DNA of 64,000 nt, from positions 257,486,001 through 257,550,000 of the forward strand of contig OZ024743.1 of the NCBI GenBank assembly GCA_964016885.1, read 5' to 3'. This stretch comes from Eledone cirrhosa (Eukaryota). How positions within the stretch are numbered: the first letter of the stretch is position 1; the number at the start of each line of letters is the position of its first letter. The notes below the pieces were generated by a model that saw nothing but the letters and a program-made list of their open reading frames with translations, was not told the origin of the DNA and searched no databases. Made by a program: the position numbers and the translations under genes. Shown here in pieces: positions 8,668 to 59,911 of this stretch.

Positions 8668-11600
8668 TATCATCATCATCATCACCGTTTTACGTCCATT
8701 CTTCCATTCTAGTATGGGTTAGATAGGTTGTTCTGTTGTGGGCAGTGTTCGGTCGGCTGACCATGCCTTGCTCATACGGGAACTGATTTTGGTTTGATTT
8801 CTACAGCTGGATGCCCTTCCTAACACCAACCTCATTTAAAGTGAGTGCTGGGTGCTTTTCTTCCGTGGCGCCTACACGTCCACTTTACAGTGTGGGCAGG
8901 GTGCTTTTTTACCATGGCTCCAACATGACCACTTTGCAGTGGGAGGGTGTGGGGGCATATTGTCTATATGCTTCAGCTTCGGCTTGTACCCGTGGGGGGG
9001 GGGGGGCAGGTCTTCTGTATTACTGCGTGACGACAGAGGTCACGGTCGTGTGTCATCGCCTTTGAGAGGTGTAATTGGGTAAGGTCGGCTTTTATCACCT
9101 CATCCCAGGTCTTCTTGGGTCTCGCCACTCCGCGGTTTCCATCAACTTCTAGTGCTCTGCACCTTTTTATGCAGCTGTCATCCTTCATACGCATCACATG
9201 TCCATACCAGCGCAACCGCCTCTCCTGCACACAGCATTTGATTCCTTTTATGCTCAGTCTCTCTCTCAAATCATTTATGCTTTGCCGTTCGCGCATGCCA
9301 TCGGAGCATGCAGGCTTCATTTCTTTCTAATCTACCCAAGTCTTCCACAGACAGCGCCAAGGTCTCACTACAATGTGACATTGCTGTTCGTATACATGCA
9401 TAATACAGTCTGCCTTTCATTTTGAGGGAAAAGCCTTTCGCAGCTAGCAGTGGCAGTAGCTCCCTGAAATTCTTCCATCCCGTTCTCATCCTAGTTATTG
9501 TACTTTCCAAACACCAACCTCCGCTGCTAATTCGGTCACCTAGGTAGCAGAAGCTGTCTAATGTTTCTACAGAGCCATCCCTGAGTTTGGTGGTACTTGT
9601 TTCCTGTGGCTGTTTGCTGCTTGCTGTCCCAGCACAGCTGCTACATGTGAAGCCTACATTCTTAGTTAAGCTTCCTGAGATCCCGCTACATCTATTGTGT
9701 GCCCATTGTTTGCATTTGGGGAAGAGAATGGAGTTCCTACCTACACCTATCCTACATACTGAGCAAGACCATTTCCCTGAGGGGATCTGGGTTCTGTTTT
9801 CTCATCTACTTACAAGTACCTTAGCCTTTTTCAGGTTGACTTTGAAACCCTTTCTTTCTAGTCCCTGCTTCAAAGTTTGGAATTTCTTCTCTAGTACTAC
9901 CATAGATTCAGCAATAAGTGCGAGGTCATCTGCATACAGGAGTTCCCATGGGCATCCGGTCTTAAACTCCTCCATTATTGCCTGCAGAACTATGATGAAC
10001 AGGAGAGGGCTAAGGACAGAGCCCTGGTGGACACCGATCTGTATGCTAAATTCCTCACTATAGTCATTGCTAATCCTAACTTTGTTGACTGCTCCCCTAT
10101 ACATGGCTTGTACAGCTTTCACAGGTCATTCATCTACTCCTAGTTTTCTAAGAGCCCACCAGATTATAGCATGGGGAACTCTGTCAAAGGCTTCTCGAGA
10201 TCAACGAATGCCTGGTAGAGCGGCTTACTTTTAGCTAGGTACTTTTCCTGTAACTGCCTGACAAGGAAGAGGGCATCACTGGTGCCTCTTCCTGGCACAA
10301 ACCCAAATTGCATCTCATCTAGTTTCACCCGGTCCCTAATCAACTGTGCTATAACTCTTTCTGTTACTTTCATAACCTGGTCCATCAGCTTCATACTTCT
10401 ATAGTTTCCTCTATCTAGTGCATCACCTTTACCCTTGTAGCAGTTGACAATGAGGCTACTGCACCAATCCTTTGGAATGACACCTTCTAGTATTACCTGG
10501 TTAACAATACGTGTGGTTATGATGTGACCTACCGACCCAGATGCCTTCAGCATCTTGGCAGTTATACCCGATGGACCGGTTGCCTTCCCCGTCTTCATAT
10601 CTTTGATTGCCTTACTTACTACACTGCTGCTGACTTGTACTGCTGGCCCCTCTACAGGGTCTACTTGGAGTAGGGTCTCTTCTTCCCATGCATTCTCCTC
10701 AATTAGTAATCTTTCATAATGGCTCTTCCACACATCTTTCTTCTCAGCACTTGTGAGGGCAAGCTCACTTTTATCATTCCGGATACACTTCTCTCCAATG
10801 ACATCACAATTCTCTCTGACACACTGCCTCGCAATCTTGAACACCTGTTTCTGTTCCTCACGTTGCAAAACATGCTTGAATTTTCTATTCTCTGCTTCCC
10901 TCCTAGCTAAGTATACTTGTCGCCTAGCTTTTCCTCCTGGTCTCTATGTAATGTACCCTGCTTCCCTCGTTCTTCCATTCTTTCCATGCCTGTCTCTTGG
11001 CCTTAACTGCCTCATCTACCTTATTGTTCCACCACCAAGTCAGTCTCCTCCTGTTTGTGGTCTTACTCCAGCCACAGACCTCATCTGTCGCCTCTAGTAA
11101 GTTATTTTTTAGGAACTCCCAGTGCTCTTCTACATTGAATGTCTCTATCTGTTCTTCTTTACTGTCATAGGCATCGAGTAAAATATCTTTAAATCTGTTA
11201 GTGGCTGAGGGGTCTTTCAGCTCCCAGATCTTTCTTCTCCAGGTTGGCCTCTGTTTCCAGGTTCGTCTAGTTCTGACCATGAGGTCGCTGACAACTTAGT
11301 TATGTTGGGAGGTACATTCCTCACTAGCCAAGGCTTTTGTATTTACAACCGTCCATCTGTCATGTCCTCTGATGAGGATAAAATCTATCTGACTAGAATG
11401 CTCCCCTGATCTAAAGGTGATCAGATGGTTGTAGGGTTTTTTTGAAGTTTGTGTTACATATCGACATTTCATTGGCGTCGCAGAATTCTAGAAGCCTGAA
11501 GCCTTCTACATTTCTTGTGCCAACCCCATAGTGTCCATGGACTCTATAAAAGCCGTCACGGTATTTACATACGTGTCCGTTAAAATCTCCTGCAATGATT

Positions 11601-14700: not shown

Positions 14701-14759
14701 AAGCAGATGACAATCTGATTTTGATTTACGACTGAACAGATGTCTCTGTATATATATAT

Positions 14760-15672
14760 CTGTAGAAACAGTAGACAGCTTCTGCTACCTAGGTGACCGA
14801 ATTAGCAGCGGAGGTTGGTGTTCGGAAAGTACAATAACTAGGGTAAGAACGGGATGGAAGAAGTTCAGGGAGTTACTGCCACTGCTTGCTGCAAAAGGCT
14901 TTTCCCTCAAAATGAAAGGCAGACTGTATGATGAGTGTATACGAACAGCAATGTTACATGGTAGTGAGACCTGGGCGCTGTCTGTGGAAGATTTGCGTAG
15001 ATTAGAAAGAAACGAAGCTTGCATGCTCCGATGGATGTGTAATAGTAATATACGCAAACGGCAAAGCATAAATGAATTGAGAGAGAGACTGAGCATATGA
15101 GGAATCAAATGCTGTGTGCAGGAGAGGCGGTTGCGTTGGTATGGACATGTGATGCGTATGAAGGATGATAGCTGCATAAAATGGTGCAGAGCACTAGAAG
15201 TCGATGGAAACCGCGGAGTGGCGAGACCCAAGAAGACCTGGGATGAGGTTATAAAAGCCGACCTTACCCAATTACACCTCTCAAAGGCGATGGCACACGA
15301 CCGTGACCTCTGGCGTCACGCAGTAATACAGAAGACCTGACCCCCACGGGTACAAGACAAAGCTGAAGCATATAGACAATATTCCCCCACACCCTTCCAC
15401 TGCGAAGTGGTCGTGGAGGTGCTACGGCAATAAAGTACCCAGCCCACACTGTAAAGTGGATGTGTAGGCGCCACGGAAAAAAGCACCCAGCACTCACTGT
15501 AAATGAGGTTGGTGTTAGGAAGGTCATCCAGCTGTTGAAATCAAGCCAAAATCAGTTCCCATATGAACAAAGCATGGTCAGCCGACCGGACACTGCCGAC
15601 AACAGGACAACCCATCTAAGCCATGCTAGCGTGGAAGAACGGACGTAAAACAGTGATGATGATGATGGTGAT
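14760..15672 (+). mobile_element. 5'-truncated RTE LINE
   Basis: Near-identical to 8668-9570 in reverse; TGA stop at ~15098; (GAT)n tail; starts after (TA)n. Confidence 0.9.
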
Positions 15673-21081: not shown

Positions 21082-24000
21082 GTAGGAATGATGTTCACCA
21101 TCTGTTCGATAATAACTTTATTCACTAATGGGTCGTTCTTTGTACGAATAAAGTTTCTAATATAGGCGTCGTTTCCAACTCTAAGCCAATCTGGTAGGGA
21201 AAATCCTAAGGAACCCTTTCGATCGAATCTAAATAGGCGGTTATGGGGTGTCTCATTAGTCGCTGTACAGAGAAGTGATCGTTGCGAGGCAAGAACTTCT
21301 GGTATGATATCTTCCCACTTAGTTTCTTTAAGTTTGCGCGAGTTAATTATGCATTGAATTCCTTTCCAGAGGACTCCGTTGTAGCGCTCGTTTTGGCCAT
21401 TTCCTTGTGGATGGTACGGCGAAGTGCGCGTGTGGGATATACCATTGGGCAAGCAGAAATGGTCGAATTCTTTGGAGAGAAACTGAGTTCCTCGATCGGA
21501 GTGTATGAATGAGGGAGCTCCGAATATTGAGAAGATTTGTTTGAGACAGTTAATGACAGTGTTTGAGGTGATGTCACGCATACCGAAAGCAAAAGGGAAT
21601 CTGCTGAATTCGTCTACTGCAGTCAATAAGTATATGTTTCCTGCTTTTGAAGATTTTGGTATTGGTCCCACGATATCGATTGACAGACGTTCGAACGGCC
21701 TTGTTGATTTAATGAGTTTAGCAGATGGAGGCTTGAAGAATTTTGGCTTGCACTCCAAACATGATACGCAGTTTTTGACGACGTCACGGATTTCGTCTAC
21801 GGAAAAGGGCAGGTTATGGCGTCGGATATAATCGTAAAATCTAGTTACTCCTGGGTGTGCTAGTTGGTCGTGGAGTACTTTTAAATCACAGGGTGGCGAT
21901 ATAGCTGCAGCGATTCTTGAAAGACAATCGGCTTGGGTAGTCGGGTTTGTAGTCAATGTCAAATTGATGCTCTGATAGTTCTAAACGCCAGCGAGATATT
22001 TTATCATTTTTGATTCGTGATTTATTACTCGAGAAAATGAAGGCGACTGATTTTTGGTCAGTCCGTATAATCGTATGAAAACACTTAACGTATTGCGACC
22101 ATCTCCATACAGCTTCAATAATAGCCATAGCTTCTCGCTCCACAGTTGAATGTCTTTTCTCGGACGGTGTAAGTGTTCTCGACAGGAAGGCCACGGGCCG
22201 TTCGTTTTGAGAAAGTATAGCTCCGATTGCATCGCCAGACGCTTCTGTTTCTATTACCAATGCGTGGCTAGTTTTAAGAGGAATGCTAAGAGCGGCATTA
22301 GAGATATCTGCTTTCATGGCTTGTATTACATCTGTAGCTACTTTATTCAGCGGGAACGAGTCAGCTTGTAATAGTGGTTGGATTTTCTTCGAGTAATCGG
22401 CAATCCACCTAGCATTATAGGCTAGGAATCCAAGGAATCGTTTCAGTTATTGTTTGTTTGTTGGGATTGGGTAGTCTAGTAGGGTTTTGATGCGTTCCTT
22501 ATCGGGTTTCTTTACTCCGTTCTGAATGTTATAACCTAGTATAGATATACTCGTTTGGCAGATTTTACTCTTATCCGAGTTAAGAGTTAGGTTTTCTGTC
22601 TTCACGGCGTTTAAGAATGCTTCCACATTTCTATCATGTTCAGCTTTGGTATTTCCCGTGACTATGACGTTGTCAATATAGGCATAGGTTTTGAGTAAGT
22701 TATATTTCTCTATAACTTGATCCATAATTCTCTGAAAAACAGGTACAGCGTTAGTCACGCCGAAAGGTAAGCGGCAGAATTGGTAGAGTTTGTGATTAGC
22801 CTGAAATGCCGTTAGAGGTTTGTCGATTTTTCTTAAAAGTACTTGGAGATACGCTGATTTGAGGTCGAATTCTGAAAAATATTTATCCTGTGTCACTTTG
22901 TTAACAACATCCTCAATGTCGGGGGATGGATAGGCATCCAATTGTGTATACTTATTAATTGTCTGGGAGTAGTCTACCACGAGTCGAGATTTCTTTCCGT
23001 GTACTATGAAGCACTGAGCTCGCCAAGGTGAAATTGATTCCTCAATGATACCGGCTTCTAGGAGGCGAGTTATTTCGGACTTAATAAAATTGTCGTCTCT
23101 CTTGTTAATGAAACGTCCCTTAGTGGCAATCGGCTTGATATTTGTCTCGGCTAAATCGTGGAAGACAAGGGGCGGATTAACTTCTATTGTCGGAAAAGTA
23201 CAGCATAGTTGATTTGAAAATTTCATGGGAGGCCGGGCACCGCCAAGGTGGAGAATAATAGAGTTATGCTGGGTGAGGACATCCATTCCGATAATGACGT
23301 CTGTGACAAGACTTTTTGCAGTGATTAGGTTCACAGATTATTCCTCGCTGTAGATACATATTGGTATGGATGTAGTACCAGACGTCATTAATATTTTATT
23401 GTCGGCTAGTGTGATTGCCCGTTTTTCTTGTTTTACGCTCAAGTTTAATTCAGTTGCTATGCTATGACGTATAAACGAATCTGTGGAACCAGGATCGATT
23501 AAGGCCTTTAGTGTGGTGTCTTTTATAGTTATCGGGCAGAGAATAGCTTTAGACAGTTTGCCGGTATTTAATGAACATATAAGTGAGGCTGCTTGCTTAC
23601 TGCTTTGGCAGTCAGATTTACAGACTGATTGCCAGTAGCCGATCTTCCCACAAGAATAGCATATGTCTTTTCTAGCTGGGCATTTATTTCTAGGATGCCT
23701 AGAAAGTCCACAAAAAAAAGCATTTAAATTCACTTTGGGAATTAGCATTTTTCAAGTATTTCAGAAGAGGTTGTTATGATTTTGTAGCTGCTACGGTAGG
23801 TTCTTGAGAGGATGTAGTTGACAGTGTTGATGAATTCAGAGAGACGTCTAGGTTGAATGATTTAGTAAAATCACTGGATAGTTCTATTGCATTTGCCATT
23901 GCTATGCAGTCTTTTAGGTTTGCTTGAGTATCGTCCAGCTCTAGGAGACGTGCTCGTATAGCGTCTGATTGGACTCCTGCTACTAGTGAACCCAGGATTA

Positions 24001-24379
24001 ACATATCTCTGTGGTCTTTAGCTGTGATGGCTTTACAGTTACATTTTTCCACTAAAAGGTTGAGTCTTTTAATAAACTCTCGGACGGTTTCTTCTTGCTT
24101 TTGGCGGCATGTTAGGAGTTAATGTCTGGCATAGAGTATACGACTGGGGGCTAAGAATTGAGTATCCAGGGTGATTAGTGCTTCGTTGAAGTTTTCTGCA
24201 GATTCGAGTAAACTAAATAGGTCGGCCCCAGCTTGTGAACGAAGGTAGGTCAATTTATGGTTGTCCTCTACTATGCCGTTTATGAGTAGGGAATCCACAA
24301 AACACTTCCGCCACCATCGCCATTGCTCGGATGTGGGGTCATTTGGGAATGTTGGGTGTGGAATTTTTAATTGAGCCAT
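21080..24379 (-). pseudogene. gag-pol polyprotein with several stops and frameshifts
   Basis: Consecutive ORFs 24119-24472, 23774-24052, 23338-23748, 22447-23334, 21886-22317, 21009-21962; likely start ATG at 24379 (MAQLKIP). Confidence 0.9.
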
Positions 24380-24491
24380 TGGTATTGAGAATGTAGCAAG
24401 CTTTGAAGGTAGAGTAAGGGTGGAAACGAATACCACAAAACGTCTAGTCTCGGAACGAAACAGTTGTAACAAATATCATATTGAATAAAAT

Positions 24492-24945
24492 TGTTGTGCG
24501 TTCTAATATTGCAAAACTAAAGCTCCAATTCCAAGCTTTTATTCAATATCTAGAATATAAAAACAGTAATTAGTCTTGAAGAAATATAACAATAATATTT
24601 GTAAGAAAAGAAAGATATGCAATAAAACAAAGTTATATTGAGGATAGATGAACTTCATAACAGTATCAGGTGGTACCTAGTGTAAAGTTCGGGTCTCCGA
24701 ATTCAGTGTGAGTCACAAAAATGTCCTGAGGTATAGAGTAGAGAATTCAGTCAATACAATACATGCTTAAGTATAATACGTAGAATTTTGTCGAAATCCG
24801 AATATTCCCGACAAGGAAGCAACATTGGATAGGGTGGGCGGTAGACAAAGCACATAGCAGCCAAAATCCGAATGGTAAGTAGATCAGTTAATCCCATACT
24901 GGCAATAGCTGTACACTGAAGTCAGTGACGCTGTTCAATATTACA
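24492..24945 (-). repeat. Putative 5' LTR of the gypsy element
   Basis: Minus strand TGTAATA...CACAACA termini; AATAAA ~50 nt before the 3' end; no second LTR to confirm the outer boundary. Confidence 0.55.
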
Positions 24946-25165
24946 TCTGGAAGTGCTCAACATTATTGAAGCATTATTTATTTAAGTTTGTTGGTTCACC
25001 ACTGGATAGAATTTGTCATTCCGTATGGTCAATCTTGATGTAATATTATGGAGTAGTGCAGTTCACCCGTCTTCGTTTGTGTAGTTGGTGGTGCTAATAC
25101 GGAGTTAATTATTACAAATAAAATAACAGGAGGCTGGACTGGTGTAAATCCTTGAAAAGTTTATT

Positions 25166-25223
25166 ATACTATGATCATTTCAATGACCGGGTCCCGTATG
25201 AATCCGGTGATATCATCAGGTAT
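25166..25223 (-). ncRNA. Hammerhead ribozyme, canonical core
   Basis: atac CTGATGA tatcaccgg..ccggtcatt GAAA tgatca TA gtat; palindromic stem III. Confidence 0.72.
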
Positions 25224-25590
25224 TCGAAATATAACAAAGGAATATATAAAAAATCCATGGGTCCGAAAATCAGAGACAGACAGGACGACTGACCACATTA
25301 TACTCATACCTTTAAACTCTAGGCTTAGGCATAACTGTTAGCTGTATTATGCCTTCCTCTGCTGGCACGTAAATAAACCCCTCCTGTGTGAATTAATATT
25401 ATTCGTTTGGTATAGACGATGGCCTGTAGAAGCTGGTTGACTTCCCGCTAGCACACCCGGAGCCTATCGCAGCTATGTTCCTAGAGTACTCGAAAAATTA
25501 ATTTCCATTTATTTCGCTAGACGATACCACTCGAAACTGGCTGACACGTGGTTAGGAGGTGCTGGCTGGGATTTACAATCAAGTAAATTG

Positions 25591-25637
25591 CAGTCAAGTT
25601 TGCAATTTTCAACTGTTGAAAATTGCAAACTTCACTG
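25591..25637. repeat. 47-bp palindrome resembling two fused mariner TIRs
   Basis: cagtcaagtttgcaattttcaac-t-gttgaaaattgcaaacttcactg; arms resemble the TIR at 2124. Confidence 0.7.
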
Positions 25638-33310: not shown

Positions 33311-33519
33311 TCTCCCACACATTACCATTATAGTAGTCAAACTCTGGGAGGGCCATCTTTTTTCTCGTGCTCTGAGAGGAATGCCTTTGACTTACTGACC
33401 TAGATCAGATCTGAGAACAAGATAACAAGATCAGAGTACTATATTATTATAAGATATGTCAAAACCAATGATGATACAGTAAATGTAATATATATAACCT
33501 AATTATAACAATGATGATC

Positions 33520-34652
33520 ATATTATGATGATGATCATGATGTTAGTAGTGGTTGTGGTGGTGATGGTGATGGTAGTATTGGTGGTGTTGGTGATGGTGG
33601 CAATGGTGATGGGAGTAGTGGTAGTGATGGTGATGGTAGTAGTGGTGGTGTTGGTGATGGTAGTATTGGTGGCGATGGTGATGGTGGTATTGGTGGCAAT
33701 GGTGATGGTGGTGATGGTAGTAGTGGTGGTGTTGGTAGTAGTGGTGGTGTTGGTAGTATTAGTGGCGATGGTGATGGTGGTGATGGTAGTAGTGGTGGTG
33801 GTGGTGATGGTAGTAGTGGTGGTGATGGTGATGGTGGTGACGGTAGTAGTGGTGGTGGTGGTGATGGCAGTAGTGGTGGTGTTGGTAGTAGTGGTGGTGT
33901 TGGTGATGGTGGTGACGGTAGTAGTGGTGGTGGTGGTGATGGCAGTAGTGGTGGTGTTGGTAGTAGTGGTGGTGTTGGTGATGGTGATGGTGGTGACGGT
34001 AGTAGTGGTGGTGTTGGTAGTAGTGGTGGTGTTGGTGATGGTAGTAGTGGTGGTGTTGGTGATGGTGATGGTGGTGACGGTAGTAGTGGTGGTGTTGGTA
34101 GTAGTGGTGATGGTGGTGACGGTAGTAGTGGTGGTGTTGGTAGTAGTGGTGGTGTTGGTAGTAGTGGTGGTGTTGGGAGTAGTGGTGGTGGTGATAGTAG
34201 TAGTGGTGGTGATCGTAGTAGTAGTAGTGATGGTGATGGTAGTAGTGGTTGTGGTGGTGAGGGTAGTAGTGGTGGTGTTGGTAGTGGCGGTGGTGTTGGG
34301 AGTAGTGGTGGTGGTGATGGTAGTAGTGGTAGTGGTGATGGTAGTAGTGGTGGTGGTGATGGTTGTATTGGTGGTGGTGATGGTAGTAGTGGTGGTGATA
34401 GTGATGGTTGTAGTGGTTGTGATGATGTTGATGCTATTAGTTGTGGTAACAATGGAAGTAGTGGTTGCACTGGTGATGGTAGTAATGGTTGTGATTGTGG
34501 TGATGGTAGTAGTGGTTGAAATGGTAGTTGTGATTGTGGTGATGGTAGTTGTTGTGGTTGTGATGATGTTGATGGTAGTAGTGGTTGTGGTGGTGATGGT
34601 AGTAATGGTTGTGATGGTAGTTGTTGTGGGTGTGGTGATGGTAGTAGTGGTT
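33520..34652. repeat. Compound trinucleotide microsatellite (GGT/GTA/GAT)n
   Basis: Direct reading; produces the poly-T/poly-V/poly-P ORFs. Confidence 0.95.
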
Positions 34653-35470
34653 GCAGATTTTCCCAAATGGTGCTACATGAAATATATGTAAAATCTCAAA
34701 TATATCATAATCATCATATTACAAGAATAATCATAATGATGACAGTCATGGTGATGATGATGATGATAATGATGAAAAATCAGAAAAAATTGTCATGTAA
34801 TTCTTTAGCAATTTAGAAGTTCTATAGAACAAGTATGTAATCCAATAAGTATATATTACATTAATAATATATATATATATACACACGCACACGCACACAT
34901 AGATATATATTTATGCATATATGCATACATATATATATATACACACACATAGATATATATATACATATACATTCATACACTCACCATATATATGCATATA
35001 TGTGTGTATGAATGTATACGTATGTATGTATATCTATCTATCTATCTATATATATATCTATATATTTAGAGAGCGAGATACACCCATCCACACATATATA
35101 TGAATGGATAAAATTAAAGAAAACGGTGAGAATCAGAAATGGAATGAAACCATTATACAGCAGCATTAGTACTCAATAGTAAATTATATCAAACTACTTG
35201 AGCCCATTGGGAAAATTTCAATCTCATTTCGAAGCTGAATACATTTCTAGTCACACCATAGAACCATTCCATCTGCCATCCATTCTCTCACAGACTTCTT
35301 CTTCTGTAAAGAGGATATGCCATTTATTGAATTATTTACTGGTAAATACTTCAAATATTTGTAGTAGAATTGGTATTGTTTTATTTTTCTTATTTCATGC
35401 TTTCTTTTCATTTTTATAAGTTTATTTTCTTGGTTTTGCAAGATTTACACTCCCAAATGTACATACACAC

Positions 35471-36578: not shown

Positions 36579-39500
36579 TTAGGTAAGGCGGGTCTTCTCT
36601 GTTACTGAGTACCGCCAAAGGTCTCGGTCCAGTGACATTGTCTTGGAGAGGTGTAAGTGTGTGATGTCGGAGTTTATCAGCTCGTCCCAGGTTTTTCTAG
36701 GTCTGCCTATTCCGTGACTACCGTCTATCTTTATTGCCCTGCACTTTGTTATACAGCTATCGACTTTCATGCGCATCACGTGTCCATACCAACGTAGCCT
36801 TCTCTCGAGTAAACAACATCTGATCCCTCTTATCTCTAATTTTTTCCTTAGTTCGTTTATGCTTTGCCGTTCACGTATATTACTGTTACACATCCAGCGG
36901 AGCATGCAAGCTTCGTTCCTCTCTAGTCTGCGTATATCCTCTGCACACAATGCCCAGGTCTCACTGCCATGCAGCATTGCTGTTCGTATGCAGGCATCGT
37001 ACAACCTGCCTTTCATTTTTAGTGAGAACCCTTTAGCAGCTAATAGTGGTATAAGCTCTCTGAACTTTTTCCAACCAGTTCTGACTCTAGCTACAGTACT
37101 TTCAGAGCACCCTCCCCCACTGCTTATTTTATCGCCCAGGTAACGGAAGCTGTCCACTATTTCTATAGAACCCTCTGCGCAATTGAAAGAGCTAGTAGTT
37201 TGTGGGCACTTGCTGCTACTTATTGCACCAGAGCACCGGCCACATGTAAAATCTATGTTCTTAGTTAGCTTACCTGTGATCCCACTACATCTTTTATGCA
37301 CCCATACTTTGCATTTAGGACATAAAATGGAGTTTCTACCTACGCCTTTCCTACACACCGAGCACGACCATTTCCCAGAAGGGACCGCCGCCTTGTTTTC
37401 TTTCCTACAAACTAGTACTTTGGTCTTAGCCAGGTTAATTTTAAGTCCTTTTGACTCTAGGCCGTGCTTCCATGTTTGGAATTTCTTCTCTAGCTCGGCC
37501 ATTGATTCCGCTATGAGTGTCAGGTCGTCTGCGTATAGGAGTTCCCATGGGCAGCCTGTCTTGAACTCCTCTGTTATAGCCTGAAGGGCAATAATAAATA
37601 GTAGTGGGCTGAGGACAGAGCCCTGATGGACGCCAACTTTTACGCTAAACTCTTCACTATATTCGTTGTTAATTCTAACCTTGCTGACTGTTTCTTTATA
37701 CATGGCTTGTATAGCCCTCACAAGCCATTCGTCAACGCCTAGTTTTCTAAGAGCCCACCAGATAATGGAGCGGGGGACTCTGTCGAAGGCTTTCTCCAAG
37801 TCGACAAAAGCTAAGTAGAGGGGTTTACCTTTAGCTAGGTACTTCTCCTGTAGTTGTCGTACTATGAAAAGAGCGTCTGTGGTACTTTTGCCTGACACAA
37901 ACCCGAACTGCATTTCATCTAGGTCAATTCTCTCTCTGATTAGTTGCGCTATTACTTTTTCCGTGACCTTCATGACCTGGTCGATTAATTTAATGCCTCT
38001 ATAGTTACTCCTATCTAGGGCGTCTCCTTTACCCTTATAACAGTTAACGATGATGCTGCTATGCCAGTCCTTTGGAACAACCCCATTCTGTACGACTTGG
38101 TTAACTATGCGGGTGACCATGGTGTGTCCCACCGTGCCAGATGCCTTCAGCATCTCAGCAACTATTTCCGAAGGCCCAGCCGCCTTACCCGTCTTCATAT
38201 CCTTGATTGCCTTACTTATTATACTCCCCTCGACTAACACTGCTGGTCCCTCTATTGGGTCGATATGGGGGAGACTGCCTTTCTCCCAATTATTCTCCTC
38301 ATTTAGTAGCCTTTCATAGTGACACTTCCAAGCTACCTTCTTATCAGCGTCGGTGATGGCAAGTGTGCCATCGTCGTTTAGTACACACTTCTCCCCAACA
38401 ATATCACGGTTTTCCTTGACGCATTGCCTAGCAATCCTGAACACCTCACGTTTTTGGTCATCGCGTTGTAGAACATGCTTGAACTTTCTTTCCTCAGCTT
38501 CCCTTCTTGCTAAGTACACTTGTCTCCTAGCTTCCCTCCTGGCCACTTGATAGTCCTCTCTACTTCCCCCATCCCGCCATACTTTCCAAGCCTGCTTTTT
38601 GGCCTTAATTGACCCCTCCACCTTACTGTTCCACCACCATGTTACTCTCCTCCTGCCTACAGGCCTGCTCCAGCCACAGACTTCGTCTGTCGCCAACAGC
38701 AGGTTTGCTTTCAGAAATTCCCACTCTCCCTCTATATTGTCCGACTCTAAATGTTCTTCCTTACTGTCGAAAGCATCAAGTAATATGCTTTGAAATTTAT
38801 TCCTGGCTGTGGGGTCCTTTAGCTTCCATATTTTCCTCCTGAGGATAGTCCTCTTCTGTTGTCGAGTACGTCTCGTCCTGACTATGAGGTCGCTAATTAT
38901 CAGTCTATGTTGGGAGGTGCATTCTTCATGGGGGAGGGATTTAGTGTTTACAACAGACACTCTGTCACGTCTTCTGGTAAGGATATAATCTACCTGGCTT
39001 GTGTGTTCCCCGGATCTATAGGTGATCAGGTGATTGTCACGTTTTTTGAAGTTAGTGTTACAGATAGTTAGGTTATTTGCATCACAGAATTCCAGGATTC
39101 TGGAGCCTTCCTCATTTCTAGTACCAAACCCATAGCCTCCATGGATTTCGTCGTAGCCGTCACAATGTTGTCCAACGTGGCCATTTAGGTCGCCTGCGAT
39201 AATTATATAGTCACTGTCGGATATTTGGGAGGTAGTTAGCATCAGTGTCTCATAGAATCTGTCTTTTATAGTGCCGGGCAGTCCGGATTGGGGTGCGTAC
39301 GCAGATATTACTGTCACCGTAGTTCTATTGAGGACAAGTCGTATTTTAATTATTCTGTCGTTCACTCTATTTACGTCTATTATCTTATCTGCCCACTTTT
39401 CTGCTACCATGATTCCTACTCCACCCAGCCCATCGTCGTTTCCCACCCAGAAAAGCTTATAACATCGTTTTTTACCCTCAATGAACCTAGCAGACCCACC

Positions 39501-39749
39501 CCTCCACCTGGTCTCTTGAATACAACAAACATCGACCTCCTTACGTTCAAGCATTTCTACAACCTCGTTAGCGCGACCCTTTAGGGTGCCTACATTTATG
39601 GTACCAACTCTGAAGTTTTGGATTGCGTTTGGGGGTTGGGGGCGGTGGGGGGCGGGGGGCGATGGGGTTATGTTAGCCGTCCGCGGTCGAAACAATGAGG
39701 AGTGCTCGCATTCTCGTCCAAGAGGTGAATTTGTCTTTATCTTTGGCAT
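36579..39749 (-). CDS. RTE LINE polyprotein: APE endonuclease + reverse transcriptase with PHD-like Zn finger
   Basis: Uninterrupted 1056-aa ORF; TINV, IQETRW, SAYAPQ, GDLNGH, VDY, SQH (APE); DLEKAFD, QGSVLSP, YADD, YLG (RT). Confidence 0.95.
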   Translation of the reverse strand: MPKIKTNSPLGRECEHSSLFRPRTANITPSPPAPHRPQPPNAIQNFRVGTINVGTLKGRANEVVEMLERKEVDVCCIQETRWRGGSARFIEGKKRCYKLFWVGNDDGLGGVGIMVAEKWADKIIDVNRVNDRIIKIRLVLNRTTVTVISAYAPQSGLPGTIKDRFYETLMLTTSQISDSDYIIIAGDLNGHVGQHCDGYDEIHGGYGFGTRNEEGSRILEFCDANNLTICNTNFKKRDNHLITYRSGEHTSQVDYILTRRRDRVSVVNTKSLPHEECTSQHRLIISDLIVRTRRTRQQKRTILRRKIWKLKDPTARNKFQSILLDAFDSKEEHLESDNIEGEWEFLKANLLLATDEVCGWSRPVGRRRVTWWWNSKVEGSIKAKKQAWKVWRDGGSREDYQVARREARRQVYLARREAEERKFKHVLQRDDQKREVFRIARQCVKENRDIVGEKCVLNDDGTLAITDADKKVAWKCHYERLLNEENNWEKGSLPHIDPIEGPAVLVEGSIISKAIKDMKTGKAAGPSEIVAEMLKASGTVGHTMVTRIVNQVVQNGVVPKDWHSSIIVNCYKGKGDALDRSNYRGIKLIDQVMKVTEKVIAQLIRERIDLDEMQFGFVSGKSTTDALFIVRQLQEKYLAKGKPLYLAFVDLEKAFDRVPRSIIWWALRKLGVDEWLVRAIQAMYKETVSKVRINNEYSEEFSVKVGVHQGSVLSPLLFIIALQAITEEFKTGCPWELLYADDLTLIAESMAELEKKFQTWKHGLESKGLKINLAKTKVLVCRKENKAAVPSGKWSCSVCRKGVGRNSILCPKCKVWVHKRCSGITGKLTKNIDFTCGRCSGAISSSKCPQTTSSFNCAEGSIEIVDSFRYLGDKISSGGGCSESTVARVRTGWKKFRELIPLLAAKGFSLKMKGRLYDACIRTAMLHGSETWALCAEDIRRLERNEACMLRWMCNSNIRERQSINELRKKLEIRGIRCCLLERRLRWYGHVMRMKVDSCITKCRAIKIDGSHGIGRPRKTWDELINSDITHLHLSKTMSLDRDLWRYSVTEKTRLT

Positions 39750-39857
39750 TGTCGCTGAGCGTCCAGATTTTTCTCTCTCTCACCTCCACTCTCCAGGATT
39801 CCGCAGTCCATCCATCCATCATATATCGAAAGGCAACCAGGCAAGCGATAGTATAGG

Positions 39858-40771: not shown

Positions 40772-40940
40772 TCATCATCATCATCATCGTTTAACATCTA
40801 TCTTCCACGCTAGCATGGGTTTAGACGGGAATTGTCCCACTTGAGGCAAGATTGGTCGTCTCGCTCGTATGGGACTGTCTGGCAGGTTTTCAACCACGTT
40901 TACAGTGTGGACTGGGAGGCTTTTATCTTGTTACCTACAT
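40772..40940 (-). mobile_element. Short RTE/SINE 3' tail fragment
   Basis: (CAT)n + cgtttaacatctatcttccacgctagcatggg. Confidence 0.8.
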
Positions 40941-41450
40941 GTTAGTGTTAACTAACTATAGTATTATAGTAATTTACAATATATTGGTATATATTATGTT
41001 AGTTAACTAACTATAGTATTATAGTAATTCACAATATATTGGTATATATTATGTTAGTGTTAACTAACTATAGTATTGATAATAATTTTATAGTAATTTA
41101 ATATATTGGTATATATTATGTTAGTTAACTAACTATAGTATTATAGTAATTTATAATATATGGGTATATATATATTATGTTAGAGTTAACCAACTATATT
41201 TTTATAGTAATTTATAATATATTGGTATATATTACGTTAGTTAACTAACTATAGTTTTGATATAAGTAATTTATGATATATTAGTATATATTATGTTAGT
41301 GTTAACTAACTATATTATTAATATCAGTAATTTACAATATATTGGTATATATTATGAGAGTGTTAACTAACTATAGTATTATAGTAATTTAATATATTGG
41401 TATGTATTATGTTAGTGTTAACTAACTATAGTTTCAATATCAGTAATTTT
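40939..41450. repeat. AT-rich minisatellite, ~55-60 bp unit, ~9 copies
   Basis: atgttagtgttaactaactatagtattatagtaatttacaatatattggtatatatt repeated. Confidence 0.9.
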
Positions 41451-46739: not shown

Positions 46740-47998
46740 ATGGGAACTTCTACATGCAGATGATCTAACTCTCATAGCTGATTCCATGGCTGAACTAGAG
46801 AGGAAGTTCCAAACATGGAAGCATGGCCCTGAATTAAAAGGCCTTAGAGTCAACTTGTCAAAGACTAAGGTTCTAGTATATTGAAAGGAGAATAGGGCAC
46901 AGGTATCTTCTAGGAAATGGCTTTGCTCAGTGTGTAAGAAAGGCGTAGGCAGAAAGTCCATTCTATGTTCCAAATGCAAACTATGGGTACATAAAAGATA
47001 TAGTGGGATCAGAGTTAAGCATTCTAAGAATGTAGATTTTATATGTGGCCGATGCTCAGACGCAGTAAGTAGCAATGACCCACTGGATGATATCTCCTTC
47101 AACTTCCCAGATGGTTCTATAGAAATAGTAGACACTTTCTGTTACCTGGGTGACAAAATCAGCAGTGGAGGAGGATGCTCTGAAAGTGTAGTAGCCAGAG
47201 TTAGAGCGGGACTGCAAAAGTTCAGAGAGCTAATACCGTTGTTGGCCACAAGAGGTTTTTTTCTAAAAATGAAAGGCAGATTGTATGATGCATGTATACA
47301 AACGGCGATACTGCATGGTAGTGAGATTTGGGCATTGTGTGCTGAAGACCTGCGTAGGCTAGAAAGAAATGAAGCTTGCATGCTCCAATAGATGTGTAAT
47401 AGTAATGTGCGCAAAAGGCGAAGCATAAACAAATTAAAAGGGAGACTAGGCATAAGAGGTATCAAATGTTGTGTTGTGAAAAGAAGCCTGCATTGGTATG
47501 GACATGTGATGCATATGAAGGACGACAGCTGTATAAAAAAGTGCAGGGCAATGAAAATTAATGGAAGCTACGGAGTGGGTAGACCAAGAAAAACCTGGGA
47601 CGAGGTGATAAAAACTGACCTTGCTCACCTACACCTCTCTAAGACAATGACACTGGATCGAGACCTCTGGCGCCCTGCAGTTGTACAGAAGACCCGACTG
47701 CCATTGCATACAAACCTACAGTCAGTTAGGCATCTCTTAACCCAATGTACACCCCACCCCAAAACCTCTACCCCATCCTCCCTCTCTCGTTCCGCCCACT
47801 GTGTTGATGACACAACAGTTCACACTGTAAGTGTGGTTGGTGTTAGTAAAGGCATCCAGCTGTAAAAAACCTGCCAGAGACGCTTCCTTGTGAGCGAGGC
47901 ATGGTCCCCCGACCATTCCCGCATCGAATGGAACGAAACCGTCTAACCCATGCTAGCATGGAAGATGGACATTTAAACGATGATGATGATGATGATGA
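46740..47998 (+). mobile_element. 5'-truncated RTE LINE with stops
   Basis: WELLHADDL through RPRKTWDEVIK; (GAT)n tail. Confidence 0.88.
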
Positions 47999-58420: not shown

Positions 58421-58980
58421 AGACAACATTCTCCCATACTATCCAGGTTAATAACTTTGAAGTAGTGATAGTGGAGTATTCTTTCTCATGTTTTCTAAAT
58501 TCGTTCTAATTCAATCACAACCCTTAAGAAACAAGAATCTACATCCATCGAATGGGCATCTGCACATTCTAAATCTACCCAATCTCAATCACAAGGCTTG
58601 GGTAAACCCAACGCTACAGTTCAGGCACTTGTTCAAAATGTTACCATACAGTGGGATCAAACCTGGGACCTCATAGTTACAAAGTGAACTTCCTAGCCAA
58701 CCAGCCATACCTGCATTGAAGACATAAAAAGAAGAGTGAAAAAGATTGTTAAATGCTGAAGGTGCATAAATGAGAGTTAATTTGACAACTTGGAAAGAAA
58801 CAAGACAAAGGTTAGCAGACAAAAAATTGACACCACATAAAAGAAAGGACAGAGCAAAGTCCAAAGACTGTCATTGGTTACATCTCATTGTTGATAATAG
58901 ATAGCCCTTTGCTAGTGGCTAATCATTATATATATATGTGTGTGTGCATGTATATGTATGTATATATATATATGTATGTG

Positions 58981-59909
58981 GGGGAGGGTGCTCTGAAAGT
59001 ACAGTAGCTAGAGTCAGAACTGGATGGAAAAAGTTCAGAGAGCTTATACCACTATTAGCCACTAAGGGGTTCTCCCTAAAAATGTAAGGCAGGTTGTATG
59101 ATGCCTGCATACGGACAGCAATGTTGCATGGCAGTGAGACCTGGGCATTGTGTGCAGAGGATATACGCAGACTAGAGAGGAACGAAGCTTGCATGCTCCG
59201 CTGGATGTGTAATAGTAATATACGTAAACTGCAAAGCATAAACGAACTAAGGAAAAAATTAAAAATAAGAGGGATCAGATGTTGTTTACTCGAGAGAAGG
59301 CTACGTTGGTATGGACACGTGATGCGCATGAAAGTCGATAGCTGTATAACAAAGTGCAGGGCAATAAAGATAGACGGTAGCCACGGAATAGGCAGACCTA
59401 GAAAAACCTGGGACGAGCTGATAAACTCCGACCTCACACACTTACACCTCTCCAAGACAATGTCACTGGACCGAGACCTTTGGCGGTACTCAGTAATAGA
59501 GAAGACCCGCCTTACCTAAATACATAGTAAAACCTACTACAGTCAGTAGGCATCCCTAACAAAATACAGCCCCGTCCCACCACCCCCACCCCACCCACAC
59601 CGCCCCCTTCTATGTAAAGTTATGTTGGTGCCACACAATCCAGGCCGAAACAAATGAGATCGTGTAGGTGTCACGACAAAAAAACACACAGTCCACGCTG
59701 TAATGTGGCCGCGTAGGCAACACGGTAAAAACCTCCCAGACCCACACTGTAAATGTGGTTGGTGTTAGGAAGGGCATCCAACTGTAGAAAACCTGCCAGA
59801 CAGTCCTATGCGAGCAAGACAATCACTCTTGCCTCAAGTGGGAAAACCCCCGTCCAAACCCATGCAACCGTGGAACACGGACGTTAAACGTTGATGATGA
59901 TGATGATGA

Positions 59910-59911
<2 letters not shown>
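58981..59911 (+). mobile_element. 5'-truncated young copy of the intact RTE family
   Basis: Protein almost identical to the C-terminus of 36579-39749, with one TAA at ~59085; (GAT)n tail in (TA)n. Confidence 0.92.

Follow-up and report, generated by a model that had tools for sequence, protein, structure and literature searches.

A Gypsy retrotransposon of Eledone cirrhosa probably primed by its own RNA, with host exons spliced to the primer

How does a Gypsy retrotransposon start reverse transcription when its primer-binding site (PBS) matches its own long terminal repeat (LTR) instead of a tRNA? The question is raised by an element on the minus strand of a 64,000-nt stretch of the Eledone cirrhosa genome (OZ024743.1, 257,486,001-257,550,000), called the window below; all coordinates given here are positions in it.

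The element and its primer-binding site

The window element is a broken copy of a low-copy Ty3/gypsy family of about 4 kb, named family 1 in what follows. Read on the minus strand, its coding region has the order gag-PR-RT-RH-IN, interrupted by several stop codons and frameshifts. The translated gag (23600..24379) displays two Cys/His knuckle-like motifs and, in this copy, two stop codons and a frameshift. An aspartyl protease (23341..23599; weak Pfam matches PF13650 and PF13975), then a stop codon, precede a reverse transcriptase (RT; 22450..23337; PF00078, E 8e-29) with the motifs SPWRAQ, DYSQTIN and YIDN, an RNase H (21889..22446; PF17917, E 4e-26) and an integrase (21094..21980; H2C2 and core, PF00665 and PF17921) cut off at a (TA)n run, the match to other copies stopping at 21094. 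Both the YIDN motif and the truncated integrase had been noticed in a first-pass annotation of this DNA. The domain order PR-RT-RH-IN is that of Ty3/gypsy LTR retrotransposons, and the other marks of this group are present as well, namely TG...CA LTRs, a target site duplication (TSD) and a purine-rich tract, GGCGAAGAA, that precedes the 3' LTR in full copies; the window copy, being truncated, lacks both the tract and the 3' LTR. Genome searches retrieved full copies of about 4.0 kb that carry one and the same LTR at either end (two-ended copies span 2.9-4.5 kb) and, among the matches listed, at least about 26 RT copies of 93-100% identity. In 14 two-ended copies the TSD is a perfect 5 bp (11 copies), 5 bp with one mismatch (2) or 4 bp (1). 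A search of viral contigs yielded no relative of the element.

The neighbourhood is rich in repeats of other kinds. The element sits inside an unrelated high-copy repeat (24663-25580), parts of which are internally inverted and which gave 4033 first-look candidates, close to a perfect 17-bp hairpin at 25596-25632. Another dispersed repeat, probably a non-LTR element, contains an open frame of 1066 codons (36579-39779, minus strand), with related fragments at 9001-9949, 14759-15345, 46740-47699 and 58978-59910. A low-complexity array of 9/15-nt periodicity occupies 33430-34700, and a minisatellite of 55-67-nt units lies at 40939-41435.

The 5' LTR (24492..24662) is 171 bp long (TGTTATG...CACAACA). 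Full-length copies, flanked by 5-bp TSDs, have it at either end, and this fixes the ...CACAACA boundary where the first-pass annotation had put it. A single A (24491) separates this end from the PBS, TTTTATTCAATAT (24490-24478), a position that lacks the TGG of tRNA-primed Gypsy elements; a TGG at 24435 was considered as a PBS and rejected, since it lies away from the LTR end. Inside the LTR, at 24549-24537, stands the exact complement of the PBS, ATATTGAATAAAA, overlapping the AATAAA at 24543-24538. The 13-nt match and the missing TGG are as that annotation had described them. A perfect inverted repeat of at least 13 nt occurred in 4 of 3000 dinucleotide shuffles of 24401-24700. The 72 nt from 24549 to 24478 fold with -15.0 kcal/mol (z -3.4; one of 200 shuffles was equally good), and 10 of the 13 pairs between PBS and putative primer form in the lowest-energy fold, a shortfall that we count against the reading preferred below. 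What remains of R, together with U5 (24492..24536), would make up the loop of the stem and contains two small predicted hairpins.

Directly 5' of the 13-mer, the sense strand of the LTR has the layout of a 3' splice site. The U3-like part (24550..24662) is 65% pyrimidine, with a predicted branch-point-like CTAAT (24569..24573) and a pyrimidine run ending in ...TTCTAG (24550..24563). On the antisense strand there is no AG before the PBS. Within the U3-like part no good splice donor was found, the best GT agreeing with the donor consensus at 3 of 6 positions, and no internal intron is therefore evident. An acceptor in the sense LTR, no AG on the opposite strand and no internal donor together point to the splicing of host exons to base 24549, and in rearranged copies host donors are joined to precisely that base. 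On this sequence evidence, host exons were spliced to the LTR there, and the acceptor was used.

Conservation of the pairing across families

The complementarity first seen in the window copy is conserved in diverged homologous families, where PBS and LTR vary together. In the same genome, family 2 (about 50% RT identity to family 1, 194-bp LTR) pairs over 12 nt with the PBS and LTR arms placed as in family 1, and one position shows a compensatory change. A distant Gypsy family of that genome, used as a control, has an ordinary TGG PBS. Loci L166-L169 belong to an abundant Gypsy family with 33% RT identity, an LTR of about 430 bp and a TGG PBS, presumably CsRN1-like, judging by a motif.

A metagenome set gave 80 loci, 44 of them with enough upstream DNA. 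A perfect stem of at least 11 nt, with its 3' arm starting one base after the CA, was present in 19 of these 44 loci, compared with 1 of 132 control intervals. L128, counted among the 19, is an apparent chance case, and the other 26 loci comprise 12 without a match to the gag N-terminus, 11 having a stem with a damaged boundary or one to two mismatches, and 3 with none (L101, L103 and L104). Overall, 29 of 32 judgeable loci carry the stem, and a TGG PBS was not seen in any of the 32.

Seventeen family groups, at 36-71% RT identity, share the frame ...AAA/[AG]C...CA/A TTT (slashes marking boundaries) while their inner letters differ. At positions -5 to -11, 117 of 119 bases pair with the PBS of their own family, against 51% across families, and the best of 20,000 permutations reached 88; the groups were picked for the presence of a stem, so that these figures show covariation and not prevalence. 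Within one family, L091 and L094 differ by a paired change. The AAA/[AG]C context is kept in 16 of the 17 groups, and the A spacer after the LTR in all 17 representatives. A PBS that is complementary to the element's own LTR, and conserved with compensatory change, is what a self-primed element should have. In most metagenome families the pairing continues upstream beyond the AG, in family 1 it ends exactly at the acceptor; a spliced RNA could make no use of pairing past the AG, so that splicing-in may be special to the families of this genome. Just 5' of the primer, 11 of the 17 families (L077-L156) have a T-rich run that leads into an AG placed at -11/-10 relative to the primer's end; this AG may act as an initiator-like start, as a splice acceptor or as both.

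As to lineage, the first-pass annotation had seen no chromodomain in the truncated window copy, and copies with a complete 3' end bear this out: no Pfam match to a chromodomain was obtained in one complete integrase C-terminus or in four homologues, and PF00385 is absent from the precomputed domains of all 120 homologues listed. The RT scores 86 bits with Ty3 and 95 bits with its top PDB match, 8r0s, which we take to be a caulimovirus RT. In an RT tree whose outgroup is the TGG-PBS control family of the same genome, and which contains no reference elements, the stem-bearing families interleave with proteins from Pieris, Achroia, Armadillidium, Macrobrachium, Trichonephila and others. At the RT active site, YxDN replaces YxDD in 8 of the 13 representatives in which the motif is covered; this is a trait of the clade, not damage. 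The family should not be filed under Tf1/sushi, and the early suggestion of self-priming in a different gypsy lineage gains support from the conserved, covarying pairing and from the lack of a chromodomain. Cigr-1 is a short element with one open frame of about 1200 codons. The present families can be likened, by description, to Cigr-1/MolGy (Thomas-Bulle et al., 2018; PMC6238403), which are likewise low-copy metazoan Gypsy families. The accessible part of that paper's supplement places low-copy Cigr-1 families in a cephalopod, a circumstantial argument for naming the clade; the motif SPWRAQ was not found in the accessible supplements, and neither 'PBS' nor 'primer' occurs in the main text.

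Copies in which the primer-binding site runs into host exons

LTR elements regenerate the PBS by copying the primer, and as a result a plus strand that stalls carries, beyond the PBS, the 5' continuation of that primer. Apparent continuations of this kind have been preserved. Twenty-nine independent family-1 5' ends divide into 21 ordinary ones and 8 that continue from a complete PBS into foreign DNA (nine loci, the duplicated L025/L026 being counted once), the first foreign letter always being C. A partial PBS after the LTR end was found in none of 64 family-1 LTR-end matches. In four of these copies (L041, L042, L052 and L055) the two LTRs are still present and the TSD is perfect, and hence they arose by ordinary integration. 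Family 2 contributes six more junction events. Twelve of the 14 inserts from both families were searched in the genome, L157 and L162 being left out; in L162, which is degraded, the first letter is not C, unlike what is expected of an exon end.

Eight of the 12 searched inserts align to a donor across the junction. Each of the eight is in antisense orientation and begins precisely where a GT splice donor lies; GT has a background frequency of 0.06 per site. The donors read AG/GTAGGT (L041, L056), GG/GTAAGT (L052), AG/GTAAGT (L035, L055), AG/GTTCGT (L159), AG/GTATTT (L160) and CG/GTACGT (L072). The inserts of L041 and L159 cross further canonical exon-exon joints, again antisense, which means that the template was spliced RNA; two located exons of L041 lie 125 kb apart. 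The lower identity between donor and insert in L056 (92%) and L072 (89%) counts against this assignment. For the other four searched inserts no exon donor was assigned: L042 and L075 show no splice donor at the junction, L161 carries a repeat of which no close copy was found in the genome, and the best donors of L054 (repeats at 92-93%) have no splice donor at the aligned site.

These DNA fossils thus preserve plus strands that copied their primer and end at or beyond the PBS, as self-priming implies. The first-pass annotation had proposed priming of the Tf1 kind, with transcription starting near 24549. Its pairing and geometry stand; a primer formed by the capped 5' end of the RNA does not fit the eight resolved junction copies, in which the 13-mer is preceded by a host exon, but may apply to ordinary copies. 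Since spliced host exons stood before the 13-mer in many replication cycles, 24549 is a splice-acceptor boundary, and it may be a transcription start as well.

Two interpretations of the junctions were discarded. The letters C, CT, CTA or CTAG after the PBS had been taken for a continued complement of the LTR or for a cap-templated C, and this was dropped as they are the complement of exon ends; a statistic on these letters cannot tell the two readings, LTR complement or exon end, apart. Four pattern matches (C3:108896052, C3:8415150, C6:83701456 and C1:275518991) have no LTR and were removed from the junction count.

The surroundings of the donors and inserts show further peculiarities. Downstream of the L055 donor, at a distance of 4,538 nt, there is a same-strand solo LTR with a TSD. 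It is the exception among six donors followed downstream for 6-10 kb: beyond the other five, no LTR occurs for about 10 kb, which counts against an exon-tailed self-primer. Junction copies often have, after the foreign insert, long stretches of the element in inverted orientation (L052, L157, L035, L159 and L161), as expected from plus-strand switching onto element RNA. The donor exons of L052 and L160, which belong to different families, are multi-copy, with 99-100% identity at several to dozens of places; their copies fall on overlapping contigs (C18 and C370), those listed being on G000:C18 (about 5-11 Mb), C370, C1635, C19 and C20 (L193-L195, L210-L212), possibly an amplified array of germline-expressed genes. 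In family 2, L062, L063 and L072 have a 5' LTR end shorter by 2 nt, the terminal CA being lost while the PBS and a normal 3' LTR are kept, and L037 has lost most of its PBS through a short deletion.

A probable self-primer with a host tail, its rivals and its relatives

A missing tRNA site, a PBS that pairs with the element's own LTR and exon pieces joined exactly there make self-priming by the element's own RNA likely. What continues after the PBS is whatever was spliced onto the 13-mer of the LTR, and this singles out the 13-mer as the primer. From comparisons of DNA, we give a probability of about 0.87 to the reading that family 1 is self-primed, with a primer that often carries spliced-on host exons, copied after the PBS. 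As the DNA fossils show, a sense copy within a host transcription unit lends its LTR acceptor to the host, producing an RNA made of one or more host exons, the 13-mer, U5, the PBS and gag-pol. In the particle, the 13-mer would pair with the PBS, as covariation suggests, and the stem may also mask the AAUAAA poly(A) signal of the 5' LTR. By analogy with Tf1, the RNA would be cut at ...AAAA/GC, 3' of 24537, probably by RT/RNase H. This cut would leave a 3'-OH one base from the LTR end and shift the host exons from the template to the 5' tail of the primer. U3 and its acceptor would be rebuilt from the 3' LTR, so that nothing 5' of 24549 would be needed. Plus-strand synthesis copies the PBS and continues into the exon tail, as the fossils show; the tail would presumably be trimmed in ordinary copies and, in 8 of the 29 5' ends, was retained and rejoined to the element through template switching.

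As the cut moves host exons from template to primer, self-priming would make a gene-trapping way of life feasible. A bolder proposal, which we regard as rather unlikely, is that these families are promoter-poor gene-trap retrotransposons that replicate mainly from host transcripts spliced into the LTR acceptor. Were it true, the acceptor-like YAG that most related families have 5' of the primer would be the sign of a life cycle common to the whole clade, in which host promoters are borrowed and antisense exon copies are left in new insertions.

The most resilient alternative holds that the element has a transcription start of its own near 24549-24553, as in Tf1, and that exon-tailed RNAs are a side route over-represented among rearranged copies. 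It has the same priming step as the reading of an exon-tailed self-primer and differs only in how frequently host exons are spliced in. With the AG at -11/-10, as in 11 of 17 families, the primer would be 11 nt long, the length described for Tf1 in the accessible part of PMC7175516, 21 of 29 family-1 5' ends are ordinary, and the CTAG of L054 fits a short unspliced extension. However, the family-1 pairing stops exactly at the acceptor, none of the eight family-1 junctions extends more than 4 nt into the complement of U3, and five of them are resolved as exon ends, which brings this alternative somewhat short of an even chance.

It is improbable that the exon pieces came from a plus-strand template switch onto an intact, co-packaged exon-LTR RNA (from a solo LTR, for example), the true primer being a different one. 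Inserts do show several further switches, including onto antisense element RNA, the sole nearby source is now a solo LTR, and a switch onto a co-packaged chimeric RNA leaves an identical scar, which is the main loophole. Against this, a foreign primer would need to fit, family by family, a PBS that differs each time while the LTR changed in step, no junction has a fixed foreign sequence after the PBS, and the covariation is left unexplained.

A further proposal accepts the spliced exons and differs as to their route: trans-splicing to an outron-like U3, as opposed to splicing in cis out of an intronic copy. In its favour, U3 combines a branch point and an acceptor with the lack of a donor, five of the six donors read are followed by about 10 kb that contain no LTR, and apart from that of L055 no listed family-1 LTR end lies near the resolved family-1 donors. 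But the L055 donor does have a same-strand LTR 4.5 kb downstream, and gene-trapping insertions would tend toward loss or polymorphism; we hold trans-splicing to be quite improbable. Very improbable indeed is the idea that the stem does nothing but hide the poly(A) signal of the 5' LTR, priming taking another route: 11 of 17 representatives have a paired arm with AATAAA or ATTAAA at its end, but the other six do not, and in L084 AATAAA is in the loop. Masking does not need an arm that starts exactly one base after the CA, leaves the junctions at the PBS end unexplained, and is further weakened by the junction copies and by no other PBS having been seen. Finally, an AT-rich chance match (the 13-mer is 92% A+T) or a tRNA or half-tRNA PBS has a negligible probability in view of the shuffles (4/3000), the covariation, which also argues against an internal half-tRNA site, and the missing TGG, the controls (1/132) together with the covariation ruling out chance.

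If the reading of an exon-tailed self-primer is correct, its implications go beyond this family. A widespread animal clade with self-priming and no chromodomain suggests that this mechanism arose a further time or is much older. In the junction copies, a genome has kept evidence, rarely to be had, of the identity of a primer; they indicate that a primer can be something other than the 5' end of its RNA, and that an LTR element can obtain replication-competent RNA through host splicing. Exons could be captured in this way, and the element could be expressed from germline promoters of the host. For RNA data, the prediction is that exon-to-LTR splice reads will all fall at one base.

In the literature available to us, self-priming Gypsy elements are tied to the Tf1/sushi/Tcn1 chromoviruses, and that literature, Repbase Reports and subscription journals lying outside it so that prior notice is possible, holds no report of self-priming in the present clade or of exon-tailed primers. 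The accessible part of Neumann et al. (PMC6317226) lists self-priming for Tf1/sushi, Tcn1 and TAR copia, and the TAR lineage (Houba, Osr-1), where it is predicted from complementarity between LTR and PBS, is outside Tf1/sushi. These TAR elements differ from the window element in being plant retrotransposons of the copia superfamily, and an exon-tailed primer is not mentioned in that part of the source. Tf1 and Tf2 of Schizosaccharomyces pombe, Tj1 of S. japonicus and the Tf1/sushi/Tcn1 chromoviruses, like the window element, have a PBS complementary to their own R and no tRNA site. Tf1 is primed by the 11 nt with which its RNA starts, the cut falling between bases 11 and 12 (PMC7175516, as accessible), and about 50% of Tf1 cDNA has a single-stranded PBS copy at the plus-strand end (PMC11042837, as accessible). 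Plus-strand ends that carry a PBS copy are thus common to both, here known from DNA fossils. Unlike Tf1, the present element has a 1-nt spacer, a 171-bp LTR, an ORF of the single, roughly 1200-aa type and no chromodomain match, and its 13-mer follows a splice acceptor and carried host exons. Gene-trap insertions and retroviral exon capture are similar in that splicing is intercepted by an LTR element lying in a host intron, host sequence then passing into the progeny copies. Exons captured in this way are in sense orientation and inside the genome of the element, whereas here they are antisense and directly after the PBS, the very position expected of a copied primer tail.
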